Assembly: GCA_964187785.1 (NCBI GenBank)
Contig: OZ076409.1
Span: forward strand, 66,776,001-66,840,000
Direction: 5' to 3'
DNA length: 64,000 nt
From: Amphiscolops sp. MND2022
Taxonomy: Eukaryota
Shown here: one piece after another, positions 44,440 to 48,478 of the stretch
Layout: every line of letters begins with the position of its first letter
Numbering within the stretch: position 1 is the stretch's first letter
The notes under the pieces: model-generated
Databases searched by the model: none
Seen by the model: the letters and a program-made list of their open reading frames with translations, nothing else
What the model was told of the DNA's origin: nothing
Position numbers and translations under genes: made by a program

Positions 44440-44900
44440 AAAAATGAAATCTGATTGGGTGAAAATTGACTTCATGTAATTGGTCAACCATATACGGAAG
44501 GTGTGAGTCACTGAACCATAAATGAAGTAGTTAGCCTACCATAAAAGGAAAAAGTATTTACGCACTAGCGTCAGAGTTCCCTCTCAAGTACCTGTCAATC
44601 ACTTTTAATCTCCCTGAAAGGTAATTGCTCAAGTGGAACATTTTCTCTCAGGAGACGCCACGTTGTCTGAGAAAATCACTCAAGTGGAACAAATTCCCTC
44701 GCAAAGACGCCGATAAGTCCAGGAAAACCTCTCAATTGGATTGATTATCCAACGATAAAAGTTAAGTAGCGTGGGTAGGTGACAGCTGGTTACCCTTTAA
44801 TTACTTTCCATAAATGGAAATAAACAACACTGTTAGCGTAGTGGTTAAAAGCAAAGTCACGTGCTGTTTATCGCATTGTCATAATATTGCGGCGACGTAG
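44440..44900. promoter_or_regulatory. Divergent promoter region 1 (pPolB vs accessory ORFs) with CArG boxes, AP-1 site and E-box
   Basis: Perfect CArG boxes CCATAAAAGG (44539) and CCATAAATGG (44808); near-CArG CCATATACGG (44488) and CCATAAATGA (44516); TGAGTCA (44504); GTCACGTG (44856). Confidence 0.55.
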
Positions 44901-45042
44901 GCCTTGCTTTTATCCACTACACTAAATTTCATTATTCATTTTAATTTAAACTTTCTTTTTTGAGCAGTTCATGTCTGTTAAACAACAACTTCCATCTCTA
45001 TCTTTGCTGTAATCAATTTACGAAGACGTTCCAGAACAAACT

Positions 45043-45595
45043 TTGGACGAAGCTGACGTTGACTCGTACTTTTATCGCAACATATTGGACATTACAAAGA
45101 CGGACAATCGTCTCGTGCGAGTCAGTAAGGGGTCCAATAAAAATTTATTTGCAATCAAAGTCTTTAAATTTTGCGACTTGAAAGCTCAACAACGCTTTTT
45201 CCTTGACGAGGAAATTTCCATCACGAAAAATGAGCTCGCTGCGACCCTCAACAGACTGCGTCACTTTTTAAAACAGTACGACCACGCACGAAAGGCAACT
45301 CTATACCCCCTACCGAAACCATTACAAGAGATTGGCTTTACGCTGTGGAAGGACGAACTCTTCTCACACTATTATCTAGATATAAGAGCATACTGATTGT
45401 CATTTGCGTTTGTCTTTCCGCTTTGAAAAAGACAAGAATTTTTGTTTTCCATTGAAAAAGTTTCTTTATAGGGGAAATCAGTTTGTATTGACAGAAATTG
45501 TCAACCTGAGTCACAACGAACTGTACGAACTGTATAAGGACCGCTACTTTATATCGAGCAAGAGCGGAATCATTGAAAGCAACTACGACGTCTAA
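45043..45595 (+). pseudogene. Accessory ORF, two putative PC4-like (beta-rich plus helix) units, frameshifted at ~45390
   Basis: ORFs 45043-45396 and 45404-45595 join through a small indel. Repeated pattern RLVRVSK..LFAIKVFK..EEISITKNEL and RLSFRFE..FPLKKF..EIVNLSHNEL. Fold call is by eye. Confidence 0.4.
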
Positions 45596-45891
45596 TGGAG
45601 CTCAACGCAGTTATAGATACAATCGGGAACGTTTACTGCCCTGAATGTGAGCTACAAAATTGCATATTCGAACATTACTGCAAGGAGGATTCTGGAGAAC
45701 ATTGTCATTACAGTTGTCCAAAGTGTGACGCTGATTGTCTTGTGCAGGGTATTCCTTTTAAGGATCAAACGCTGCAGGCAAGCTTAAAAGATGCCGGTAT
45801 ACATTCATTCAGAGCCAAGACGACAAGGGATTACGAGCGAGAACAGAAAGAACGAGTCGAAAACGACAAAGGAATGGAATTCCTACGATAA
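45595..45891 (+). CDS. Cys/His-rich putative zinc-binding accessory protein (may read on to 45960 past a premature TAA, ending in NLS-like PPAKKIK)
   Basis: CPEC..C..HYC..HCHYSCPKC..C. ATG overlaps the upstream stop, in compact viral style. Confidence 0.55.
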   Translation: MELNAVIDTIGNVYCPECELQNCIFEHYCKEDSGEHCHYSCPKCDADCLVQGIPFKDQTLQASLKDAGIHSFRAKTTRDYEREQKERVENDKGMEFLR

Positions 45892-46666
45892 TTCCTTAGA
45901 AAAAAGCCAACCAATCAACGCACAGAAGAACCACCAGCAAAAAAGATCAAGTCCATGTAGGGAAATGGACGTGTCAAGTTCCTATTGGCTGTTCAATATC
46001 CTTACAAAGTCATTTTTCAAGCAACTAGAATTCATTTCATTTCAAAACTCACTACAATCAACACGCTCTACAACAACAACAACAACAATGTTCTTCTCAG
46101 TCTCCAACAACGGAACCCAGTGGACTCTGGACTTTTCACCGGACTCTGTCACAATCATAGTGAAAGATATGGTCGAAGACTTGACAATTTCCTCCTTGGA
46201 ACTTCCAATCGCAGCCTTCAACTCTTTGATAAATCAAAGACAACAGTTCCTGGACAACCATTTAGCTCGCGTCCCCATAACTCCCAATCAGCAAGGCACG
46301 TCGGAGATGCAAGACGAGGTTCGGGCCAGCGTTGGTGACCACGATGTAAGCAGCGATTTCGTTCCCAGTGACTTGGATGATATTCAGTTCCATTGGGAGA
46401 ATCCGAACATAGACATGGATGCTGTGTATCGACCAGGCATCGATACTCCCTTCTCTCCGTCACTGTTTGAAAACATTCCTGTTGCTGGGAGCGCAGACTA
46501 CCCCATAGAGATTGACGATGAACAAGATAAAGAGAACGAGTACCCCACAACACCCGAGTCGCAGAGACCCCTGCAACCACCACTGCTGCATAGATCCCTG
46601 AGCCGTCCATTTGGGACACAACTGGAAAACATACCAAACTCTGTGTATCGTAGTTTGTTTGAATAA
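45791..46666 (+). CDS. Accessory protein with acidic/proline-rich C-terminal half; true start probably internal (e.g. 45964 or 46088)
   Basis: 291-codon open frame. Asp/Glu/Pro-rich tail (EIDDEQDKENEYPTTPES) resembles an activation-domain-like disordered region. No family recognised. Confidence 0.6.
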   Translation: MPVYIHSEPRRQGITSENRKNESKTTKEWNSYDNSLEKSQPINAQKNHQQKRSSPCREMDVSSSYWLFNILTKSFFKQLEFISFQNSLQSTRSTTTTTTMFFSVSNNGTQWTLDFSPDSVTIIVKDMVEDLTISSLELPIAAFNSLINQRQQFLDNHLARVPITPNQQGTSEMQDEVRASVGDHDVSSDFVPSDLDDIQFHWENPNIDMDAVYRPGIDTPFSPSLFENIPVAGSADYPIEIDDEQDKENEYPTTPESQRPLQPPLLHRSLSRPFGTQLENIPNSVYRSLFE

Positions 46667-46732
46667 TTGTATTTATTGTGTGTAATATATTGAATTTTTA
46701 TTATTCACAATTTCCTTTTCAAATCAGTCGTT

Positions 46733-46981
46733 ATGAGTGAGACTCTAGCAAAAGTATTAGTAGGAGCGTTTTTTATTGTCATAACTACTAGCTTGTTTAT
46801 ATATCAAGTAAGGACTACAGAAAAAATGGGACGAAATCCCGATCCCTGCCTTGAAGAGTACAAAGACTTTTGTATGAACGAAGGAGAATGTTTTAGTCAT
46901 GTGGAAGAAAACATTATAGGTTGCCTTTGTCCACCACTTTACGGAGGGAAACGCTGTGATAAGTTCTTGTGGTGGTATTAG
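46733..46981 (+). CDS. EGF-like growth factor (EGFR/ErbB-ligand type) with N-terminal signal peptide/anchor
   Basis: Hydrophobic residues 8-24, then CLEEYKDFCMNEGECFSHVEENIIGCLCPPLYGGKRC = C-x7-C-x5-C-x10-C-x-C-x8-C with Y-x-G-x-R-C. AATAAA at 47012. Confidence 0.9.
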   Translation: MSETLAKVLVGAFFIVITTSLFIYQVRTTEKMGRNPDPCLEEYKDFCMNEGECFSHVEENIIGCLCPPLYGGKRCDKFLWWY

Positions 46982-47019
46982 GAATGTTAGTCTTGTGTAA
47001 AACATATCTCAAATAAAAT

Positions 47020-47423
47020 GTGACACGTTGCAAAAATTTCAAGTTAAAATCAGACGCGTTGTAAAATTTTCCCAAAAAAATACGACACGTTGTAAAATTT
47101 TCCCAAAAAAATGCGACACGTTGTAAAATTTTCCCAAAAAAATACGACACGTTGTAAAAATTCTACTTTAAAATCAGACAAGAAATAAAAATTTTTGCTT
47201 CAAAATCTGTCTTTTTAAAACTGTATCGCAAGGGCAAAATTTGTCGTTTTTACGGAGTAAAACGGGTAAAAACTTGTCTTTTTAAAAATAAAAACGCCTT
47301 CCAAATCTGTCTTTTTAATTTTTTCATCTCGTGTTAAATGAAACACGTTGTAAAATTTTCCCAAAAAAATACGACACGTTGTAAAATTTTTCCAAAAAAA
47401 TAGGACATGTTGTAAAATTTTAC
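47020..47423. repeat. ~31-bp tandem repeat array inside the Polinton (about 8 units in two blocks)
   Basis: Unit GACACGTTGTAAAATTTTCCCAAAAAAATAC at ~47022-47170 and ~47342-47423. Confidence 0.9.
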
Positions 47424-47456
47424 TTGTAAAAGTGTGCATTTTAATTTCAGTCAAAA

Positions 47457-47639
47457 CTGAGCAAGTGTTCCGACGACTTTTGTGACTTAGTAAAGTGGAC
47501 GATTTATACTATTGGAGCATTCTTGTTGTTCCTACTAGCCGTTGCTGCAATTGCTGCTCTCATTGGTCTATTTATTGTCATGTTGAGACTTCCTATCGAC
47601 CTCTACAAGTCTCATTTCGTTGAAGAAAACAGTGGTTAG
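47457..47639 (+). CDS. 60-codon single-pass membrane peptide with CTG (non-canonical or mutated ATG) start
   Basis: LSKCSDDFCDLVKWTIYTIGAFLLFLLAVAAIAALIGLFIVMLRLPIDLYKSHFVEENSG-stop. Preceded by TCAGTC, like the EGF ORF. Not in the ORF track. Confidence 0.5.
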   Translation: MSKCSDDFCDLVKWTIYTIGAFLLFLLAVAAIAALIGLFIVMLRLPIDLYKSHFVEENSG

Positions 47640-47674
47640 TTTACTTTAATTTTAAAAGATACTAAATTACTATC

Positions 47675-48235
47675 TTAATTACCGTAACCATTTAAAAAAC
47701 AATCTACAATTTTTATTATTTCTACTTCAAATTTTGTCTTTTTAACTTGTTCAATCCTGTCTGCGAATACCGATCCACTCGTCTGTGTTGATATTGTCTT
47801 TTGCAACGAACTCAGTAAATGTCTCTTGTATTTTTTACGCAACAGCCTCTTTTTTGCTATACTCGGCATTCTTTCAACCGTCTTGTGGCGTTGATTGAAT
47901 CGTACAGCTCGTTCAATATTGTCAAACACTTGTCCATTGTTGGTAACAATCTTTCGATTAAAGCGATACTTGAATAATGTATAAAGACAGTCGACCAATT
48001 GATATGTAAAACAAAAAGTGTCCAATTTTTGCATCAAGTCATTCTTATCTTTCTCTGCAATGAGCAAAATGTGATATTTACAATTGGGAACGGTACACGT
48101 GGAATCTTCGTGTTGTGCAACACAACAGTCTTTGCTGACAAGATACTTTTCATATCTGTTTGCTTAAATGTGTACACTCTTTGTAGAGTATACAGAGTAA
48201 AAACTTGGAACAACTTGCATCATTACAGCAGCCAT
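47675..48235 (-). pseudogene. Accessory ORF of unknown function, basic C-terminus, one in-frame TAA at 48164-48166
   Basis: MAAVMMQV..SVHI*ANRYEKYLVSKDCCVAQHEDSTCTVPNCKYHI continues in frame into ORF 47675-48067. Confidence 0.55.
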
Positions 48236-48288
48236 CTGAACGTTGTGTTTTTGTTGAACAAAATGAGTCTGAAAAGATGGAATTGTTA

Positions 48289-48478
48289 CCTTAAAAGGAA
48301 TAGTCACGTGATTTCCATAAAAGGAAATGCAATCATTACCTAAAAAGGAAGGTTGACATACAAATTTTGAATGACAGCGCACAAACCTTACCTTAAAAGG
48401 AAATGTCTTCCTTTTAAGGAAAACGAGGCGTAAACATTTCCAAATATGGAATAGTCACGTGACCAAAGTAGTATAAAA
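48289..48478. promoter_or_regulatory. Divergent promoter/enhancer 2: six perfect CArG boxes, two GTCACGTGA E-boxes and a TATA box
   Basis: CC(A/T)6GG at 48289, 48315, 48339, 48391, 48410, 48440. GTCACGTGA at 48303 and 48454. TATAAAA at 48472. Confidence 0.75.

Follow-up and report, generated by a model that had tools for sequence, protein, structure and literature searches.

The window, the whole 64,000-nucleotide stretch of Amphiscolops sp. MND2022 DNA analysed here, contains a decayed copy of an endogenous Polinton/Maverick (adintovirus-like) element at 39322–56265. Its termini read AGTAGT...ACTACT and are flanked by a 6-bp target duplication (TAACTT, at 39316–39321 and 56266–56271), and its left terminal inverted repeat (39322–39807) pairs with a right arm at 55778–56265 over 364 nt at 99% and 121 nt at 88% identity. 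Terminal inverted repeats, (AGT)2 ends and a 6-bp target duplication define the Polintons (PMC8097293), with which the element also shares a protein-primed DNA polymerase B, a retroviral-type integrase, a packaging ATPase and an adenain protease, although the protease match is weak and the window ATPase is truncated.

The polymerase (39924–43292, minus strand) is spread over several frames in the window copy and matches PF03175 with E-values of 1e-10 and 7e-4. A C2H2 zinc-finger ORF (43725–44282, minus strand), with weak C2H2 matches below the cut-off, is the first gene leftward of P1, a divergent intergenic region and putative promoter (44440–44970). On the plus strand lie orfA (44971–45596), interrupted by in-frame stops in the window copy, the Cys-rich orfB (45595–45891) with two CxxC motifs, and orfC (46088–46666), which is acidic, has a KEN motif close to its C-terminus and gave no library match. 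The EGF gene (46733–46981, plus strand) comes next with its AATAAA (47012), 3' of which a 31-nt tandem repeat forms a pair of arrays over 47016–47462. orfD (47675–48163, minus strand), conserved at 46–58% in the sister clade, runs leftward from a second putative promoter, P2 (48289–48479, plus strand), which faces the rightward unit from orfE to the ATPase, integrase, capsid-position genes and protease. In this unit, a small membrane ORF and the packaging-ATPase region (50661–51429) are followed by the integrase (52007–52735; rve, E 8e-10), the penton- and major-capsid-position genes (52738–55264) and the adenain-like cysteine protease (55266–55565; Peptidase_C5, E 0.011, below cut-off), all on the plus strand. 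The window ATPase lacks its N-terminal part; the gene is intact with Walker A in the element L042, and its homologue in the distant clade B (L096) gives a Pox_A32 match over the cut-off. The penton and capsid names reflect position, size and conservation, the ORFs being conserved at the expected positions with no Pfam or PHROG match and the window capsid frame being broken. An Rfam search of the window element gave no match, and a tRNA-like appearance of the clade B left ends was rejected, neither ARAGORN nor Rfam having confirmed it.

An EGF-type protein under purifying selection

The original prediction of an EGFR-type ligand is borne out by the 82 aa product of 46733–46981. Its best PDB match is HB-EGF (E 3.7e-8), its 13 PDB matches comprise solely ErbB ligands and an EGF-like peptide of ant venom, and its single EGF domain carries six Cys in ligand spacing (39/47/53/64/66/75, CX7CX5CX10CXCX8C) with a G-x-R-C motif. 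When the family profile was searched against the PDB, the best 26 of 37 matches, at E 1e-10 to 5e-7, were ErbB ligands or an EGF-like peptide of venom, with uPA and Notch first appearing at E 7.5e-5; the window protein scores below the Pfam EGF cut-off. The structure model has a pLDDT of 84 (an earlier one from 13 sequences, pLDDT 52, was discarded). The fold search with this model returned no match at E<=0.001 and left ErbB ligands unseparated from the EGF modules of Notch and factor VII, the top viral structural match being the Shope fibroma growth factor (E 7e-3), a protein of 80 aa against 82 aa here.

The protein consists of a hydrophobic segment at about residues 8–26 (17–19 residues, with a hydropathy peak of 2.0), a short stalk, which carries N-glycosylation sequons in clade B, and the C-terminal EGF domain, with no C-terminal transmembrane helix. 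This layout is the opposite of that of classical ligand precursors, which counts against a receptor agonist; the product would be either secreted or anchored as a type II protein. The aromatic tail EK[YF]LW[WY]x, which is invariant, directly follows the domain and ends the protein. The receptor-activating positions of EGF are kept across lineages, namely a Tyr or Phe ahead of Cys2, the hydrophobic residue behind it and Y-G-G-x-R-C. The EGF gene is under purifying selection: dN/dS of the domain is 0.11–0.48 in 18 pairs and 0.14–0.20 between subfamilies, and between lineages pS is 0.60–1.06 versus a pN of 0.25–0.32. There are hundreds of copies in the genome (at least 150 scored among 630 candidates and at least 150 among 623 in a second search, and 45 at E<=1e-14 in a further one), and the gene is found in Polintons of two clades whose capsid is about 32% identical. 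The phages, viral contigs and metagenome contigs searched yielded no relatives, and two relatives from other genomes (P0150, P0213) have no high-identity counterpart in G000. A conserved splice acceptor before the EGF gene was considered and rejected, its AG being missing from the 70% subfamily.

Another function can be proposed for such a protein, which would bind EGFR as a decoy, as a partial agonist or as a tethered ligand acting by cell contact, and would tune or dampen, for example, antiviral or wound responses without driving proliferation. The hydrophobic segment could indeed be an uncleaved anchor, and the aromatic tail closes the protein right after the domain. The retention of the receptor-activating positions across lineages argues against it. 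Receptor specificity varies among poxvirus factors, but viral EGF homologues are described as agonists in the same review (PMC8785968), and we regard a decoy or tether as unlikely.

The poxvirus factors VGF, SFGF (Shope fibroma) and MGF (myxoma) are, like the Polinton protein, single virus-encoded EGF domains of the ErbB-ligand type, and they have been proposed to prime neighbouring cells (PMC8785968). The carrier differs, being an integrating Polinton of 15–19 kb with hundreds of germline copies and not a cytoplasmic poxvirus, and the VGF precursor is membrane-bound whereas the Polinton protein has an N-terminal hydrophobic segment alone. In its single EGF motif with the Cys spacing of ligands, the Polinton protein likewise resembles HB-EGF, betacellulin, the neuregulin EGF domain and the planarian Smed-egf-6/7, the latter being secreted examples of soluble ligands without a transmembrane domain (PMC4914847). 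In contrast to these animal ligands, the Polinton gene is viral, intronless and without Ig domain; no host donor gene was identified for it. Accessory genes named in Polintons are of the PLA2, gasdermin, cupiennin and oncoid types, with proteases and kinases as nematode cargo (PMC8097293, PMC8502044, PMC11131425). The terms 'EGF' and 'growth factor' have no occurrence in the main text of these three papers, and an earlier description of EGF growth-factor cargo in Polintons was not found in the literature searched.

CArG boxes and EGF cargo across related elements

Both promoter regions had been described as built from CArG, AP-1, Ets-like and E-box sites. Against 2000 dinucleotide shuffles (P1 scored over 44283–44971, P2 over 48200–48640), the CArG part of this description is confirmed, with two exact boxes in P1 (44539 and 44808; 0.04 expected, P=0.001), two more with one mismatch (44488 and 44516), and six exact boxes over 48289–48449 in P2 (48289, 48315, 48339, 48391, 48410 and 48440; 0.03 expected, P=0.0005). 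E-boxes are enriched in P2 (CACGTG, 2 versus 0.04, P=0.001; GTCACGTG at 48303 and 48454, with a TATA at 48472) but not in P1 (one, P=0.08; GTCACGTG at 44856). Neither AP-1 nor Ets sites stand out. P1 has a single AP-1 site (44504, P=0.11) and P2 has none, and a strong Ets consensus is missing from both; of nine Ets-core matches, eight overlap CArG or CArG-like boxes, while the remaining one is 82 nt away from such a box.

P1 and P2 resemble the c-fos type serum response element in having AP-1 and TATA sites close to exact CArG boxes, the CArG box being the part of a TCF-SRF element that is found here, and they differ from it in that adjacent Ets motifs are not enriched. SRF sites are also contained in the HTLV-1 LTR. 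Beside, and not overlapping, a CArG box, no Ets motif occurs within 80 nt in the window; over the family and the sister clade, 33 of 144 boxes have one, versus 18% of random positions, and many of these 33 are tails of degenerate boxes, with one real candidate TCF-type site beside a P2 box in several copies. Multimerised CArG boxes with GTCACGTG fit MRTF-type or constitutive SRF use better than TCF/ERK.

The pairing of two such promoter regions holds for the element and not for the EGF gene itself. In the motif scan, the 733 nt upstream of its start contain zero CArG, AP-1 or CACGTG sites, the nearest CArG (45754) being inside the orfB coding sequence, and P2, situated 1.3 kb downstream in front of the packaging and capsid genes, faces away from it. 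Since the EGF gene is co-oriented with and downstream of P1, P1 could drive it; on the plus strand from the orfA start to the EGF gene the only AATAAA is inside orfA, another following the EGF gene.

The co-occurrence of EGF cargo and CArG clusters across Polinton families, expected from a self-amplifying circuit, was not found. All five complete sister elements are without EGF, each with 5–6 CArG boxes; three boxes align between the window and an EGF-less sister in otherwise gapped DNA of about 60–68% identity, and the box at 44808 precedes the orfA start by 163 nt in the window and likewise in the EGF-less sister L033. Within the family of the window element, three members without EGF carry 6, 19 and 20 boxes. 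Conversely, EGF-bearing clade B elements are CArG-free in 19 of 28 cases (28 of 30 loci selected for EGF, L104 and L164/165 being dropped for showing no Polinton core genes, and nine N-series elements being covered for only about 10 kb each). Their overall CArG density is that of the background, their leader before the EGF gene has a box in 0 of 28, and in two of them a CArG pair lies about 9 kb from it. The background, 37 boxes in 400 kb, comes from forty PF03175 loci, which were rejected as an EGF-less family, being a different pPolB element class with the fetched stretch mostly flank; a further locus, L038, was uninformative. Only the EGF-bearing family of the window has the densest cluster, with up to 5–6 boxes per 300 nt, the sister clade maximum of 2 per 300 nt equalling the background maximum. 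Because only three or four independent lineages are compared and clade B was chosen by EGF presence, a statistic of association cannot be given. EGF cargo and CArG promoters do not travel together as a co-evolved EGF-SRF module would, and with EGF occurring without CArG and CArG without EGF, the distribution does not support a self-amplifying loop.

A probable viral growth factor and its host pathway

The premise of a host pathway stands, as an EGFR-like exon, SRF and an Elk/TCF-like gene were found in the host genome. A search for the full host EGFR protein did not find it, and L051 was not counted as EGFR, having zero PDB matches. The parts list and the pathway genes remain from the circuit reading, while the step from co-occurrence to circuit is largely lost to the uncoupled distribution.

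A loop restricted to one family can still be considered, in which a wound or mitogen would act through SRF/AP-1 at P1 on the EGF gene, and its product through EGFR-ERK in the producing cell and its neighbours. The position of the EGF gene behind P1 with no plus-strand AATAAA between orfA and it, the recurrence of the P1 AP-1 site in 10 of the 12 family loci inspected, the restriction of the densest CArG/E-box cluster to this family, the TCF-type motif beside a P2 box in several copies and the host genes are in agreement with it. Against it are the uncoupling, the single and non-significant AP-1 site, the orientation of P2 and the lack of Ets enrichment beside the boxes, despite the preference of TCF for Ets motifs that are well defined (PMC5179500, PMC3310822); moreover, in another animal, the acoel Hofstenia, wound induction of egr survives egfr-1 or nrg-1 RNAi (PMC13046036). 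We consider such a loop improbable. Slightly less probable still is its fullest form, an ancient Polinton growth factor placed in one family under an SRF/AP-1 promoter, so that wounding would activate many copies, whose EGFR ligand would activate further copies; if true, this feed-forward loop would give a germline virus population a part in the regeneration signalling of its host.

The signature of SRF is an A/T core of variable sequence flanked by invariant CC and GG. That the boxes are instead bound by the zinc-finger protein which the element encodes, or by a host factor of the YY1 kind, serum response being irrelevant, is suggested by the C2H2 gene adjoining P1, strongly biased flanks (GG followed by AA on 141 of 288 sides) and the core CCATAAAAGG in 48 of 144 boxes, but is the least probable alternative given this signature, the 16 core variants in the family and sister clade, many without a CCAT start, and the SRF gene in the host.

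The best reading is a poxvirus-style viral growth factor combined with a clade-specific SRF-type promoter. We hold with moderate confidence that the Polinton EGF product is exported and activates host EGFR, and that CArG boxes recruit SRF as a separate promoter design. The EGF-like protein likely stimulates the host growth-factor receptor; having left the infected cell, or being type II anchored on it, it would push infected and neighbouring cells towards proliferation. The boxes are likely read by host SRF, and P1 would drive the polymerase leftward and orfA-C, possibly also EGF, rightward, while the unit of packaging and capsid genes would be under P2. Feedback, if there is any, would be a side effect within a single family and not a conserved circuit.

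Viral EGFR ligands are known mostly from poxviruses. Several hundred ligand genes in one germline imply host silencing or tolerance, and the CArG/E-box promoters point to a named host factor for Polinton transcription. The families with and without EGF and CArG form a natural 2x2, with built-in controls for wound or inhibitor RNA-seq. The presence of a selected EGF cargo in two deep Polinton clades suggests that Polintons act, or acted, as viruses manipulating the growth state of the host cell, which bears on the question of Polinton life cycles.

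The Polinton element and its EGF gene

The EGF gene and both CArG-bearing regions lie within one 16.9-kb element (39322-56265 of the window), which has terminal inverted repeats (TIRs) of 364 nt with 99% identity, ends in AGTAGT/ACTACT, a TAACTT target duplication and genes for pPolB, integrase and adenain, the last as a weak match; it is a Maverick by the criteria quoted in a passage of PMC8097293. This copy is decayed, with frames broken in the polymerase, orfA, the ATPase and the capsid-position gene, and belongs to a large family with many close copies (at least 122 capsid-gene matches; 121 scored of 1513 candidates). 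At 45594-45597 the orfB start overlaps the orfA stop (TAATG), as is typical of translationally coupled genes. The product of orfC (46088-46666), which adjoins the EGF gene, carries an acidic tract and a KEN motif kept in the sister clade and in EGF-fused relatives (protein P0224); since the KEN motif is an APC/C degron, its presence suggests a cell-cycle role. At 47016-47462, 31-nt tandem arrays of differing copy number among elements have EGF on one side and a small membrane ORF on the other. Elsewhere in the window (~17900-30200), a 6105-nt tandem duplication holds two ORFs, one of 350 aa without Pfam match and one encoding a TRC8_N/RING ubiquitin-ligase (RING seen in the second copy).

The EGF gene (46733-46981) encodes 82 aa, in which a short stalk links a hydrophobic segment (peak 2.0) to a terminal EGF domain whose cysteines are at positions 39, 47, 53, 64, 66 and 75. 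Each of the 13 PDB sequence matches was either an ErbB ligand or a venom peptide of EGF-like type, the closest being HB-EGF (3.7e-8). In a 58-sequence profile search, the best 26 of 37 PDB matches were again of these kinds, and other EGF modules began more than 100-fold weaker. The ligand classes are taken from PMC4914847. The rank of the ErbB-ligand class and the six-cysteine domain are in agreement with the EGFR-type ligand of the original prediction. With the predicted domain model (pLDDT 84), Foldseek confirmed an EGF module, leaving ligand and Notch-type modules unseparated, and returned no match at E<=0.001; the first-ranked viral structural match was Shope fibroma growth factor.

Among 114 proteins recovered by profile search are many relatives of 80-120 aa with identical layout that terminate in EK[YF]LW[WY]x. 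Three overlapping counts of EGF copies were obtained in genome G000: at least 150 of 630 candidates, at least 150 of 623, and 45 of 598 at E<=1e-14. Over the final 44 codons, dN/dS was 0.11-0.48 in 18 pairs of intact natural copies, which are short, non-independent and picked from intact best hits; across distant lineages pN was 0.25-0.32, with synonymous sites near saturation. All compared pairs agree and point to selection on the gene. Among the papers listed in literature searches, judged by titles and the starts of abstracts, none described a Polinton with EGF cargo or CArG promoters, and the term EGF is absent from the main text of the surveys PMC8097293, PMC8502044 and PMC11131425, whose supplements could list such genes. 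Viral growth factors as such are already known; one in Polintons would be new.

Motifs of the putative promoters

Relative to 2000 dinucleotide shuffles, exact CArG boxes numbered 2 (0.04 expected) in P1 (44283-44971, before orfA) and 6 (0.03 expected) in P2 (48200-48640, before the packaging/capsid unit), in line with the CArG sites proposed; GTCACGTG occurs twice in P2, which also has a TATA box. Of the other proposed sites, AP-1 occurs once in P1 and is absent from P2, not a significant enrichment over shuffles (P=0.11), and eight of nine Ets-core matches overlap a CArG, the best deriving from a one-mismatch box that matches CArG exactly in duplicated copies of P1. A free TCF-type motif stands within 30 nt of 33 of the 144 boxes in 17 sequences of the family and sister elements, versus 18% of random positions. 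Passages of PMC3310822 and PMC5179500 describe TCF recruitment as needing or preferring such an Ets motif and MRTF recruitment as independent of it. P1 lies 1.9 kb 5' of the EGF gene, separated by three ORFs, and could drive it as part of one unit; P2 is 3' of the gene and oriented towards the packaging/capsid unit. In the EGF-less sister clade (L033:1100-1900 and others), P1 contains a tandem array in which 3-5 TGACGTCA (CRE) sites per element replace the AP-1 site.

Distribution of EGF cargo and CArG boxes

Integrase and capsid trees (31 and 35 segments; midpoint root, without support values) separate two deep clades: clade A, with the window's family and its sisters, and clade B, distant and EGF-bearing. 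None of the five complete clade A sisters (both TIRs seen) had an EGF match and all carried CArG, with 5-6 boxes each (2.9-3.9 per 10 kb); three sister boxes can be aligned to those of the window, one at the identical 163-nt spacing from orfA. Within the window's own family, three members without EGF carry 6, 19 and 20 boxes. Clade B elements have EGF as their first gene, 183-490 nt away from the left end, and 0 of 28 leaders before it contain CArG or AP-1. In this clade, sampled by EGF presence, 19 of the 28 elements are without CArG anywhere (nine were covered for only 10 kb), with boxes at 0.44 per 10 kb versus 0.93 in a 400-kb background. Since EGF-less sisters keep CArG and clade B EGF leaders are without it, neither trait requires the other and, by this sequence distribution, either occurs independently, in lineages too few for a statistic on the association. 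The EGF-SRF circuit proposed from their co-occurrence is thus not supported by distribution.

Only the window's family has a dense cluster, reaching 5-6 boxes per 300 nt, against a maximum of 2 in sisters; this cluster and the CArG pair carried by two clade B elements tell against the reading of independent traits. We regard a self-amplifying loop limited to the window's family as unlikely; in Hofstenia, albeit another animal, egr induction by injury persists after EGFR knock-down (PMC13046036), which calls for caution about the loop.

Two sets of loci, L041/L143/L144 and L042/L145/L146 (C12 and C7 of genome G000), have both TIRs, integrase and capsid genes 96-98% identical, and, in place of polymerase, orfA-C and EGF, a rearranged module in which P1 is present in additional copies alongside another CArG cluster (19-20 boxes); they are likely non-autonomous elements with amplified promoter motifs. 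In clade B, 17 of 19 E-series elements have an antisense B-box-like motif in the leader ahead of EGF. Leaders such as L109:4656-4876 and L096:4725-4997 look tRNA-like by eye; neither ARAGORN (10 loci) nor Rfam (L109) returned a match. A separate, abundant pPolB class (L056-L095; 1907 candidates in the PF03175 search) has N-terminal zinc fingers and nearly no match to the window's genes.

Host pathway and proposed role

The host genome contains an EGFR-like exon (closest in the PDB to Drosophila EGFR, E 9e-9), SRF (E 2e-9), an Elk/TCF-like Ets gene with ELK1 as best match and, judged by eye, a MEF2-like exon. That the EGF protein would be a decoy or a tethered ligand is improbable in our judgement, and reading of the CArG boxes by a protein other than SRF is less probable still.

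We consider it most likely, with some confidence, that the EGF protein acts on host EGFR and that, separately, clade A promoters use host factors. The protein would enter the secretory route, be released or displayed, and activate EGFR, which may favour cycling cells for viral DNA replication; independently of this, host SRF and a bHLH-type factor would act on the two divergent promoters of clade A. The proposed role of the Polinton EGF protein would resemble that of poxvirus growth factors, described in a passage of PMC8785968 as promoting cycling cells for viral DNA replication.
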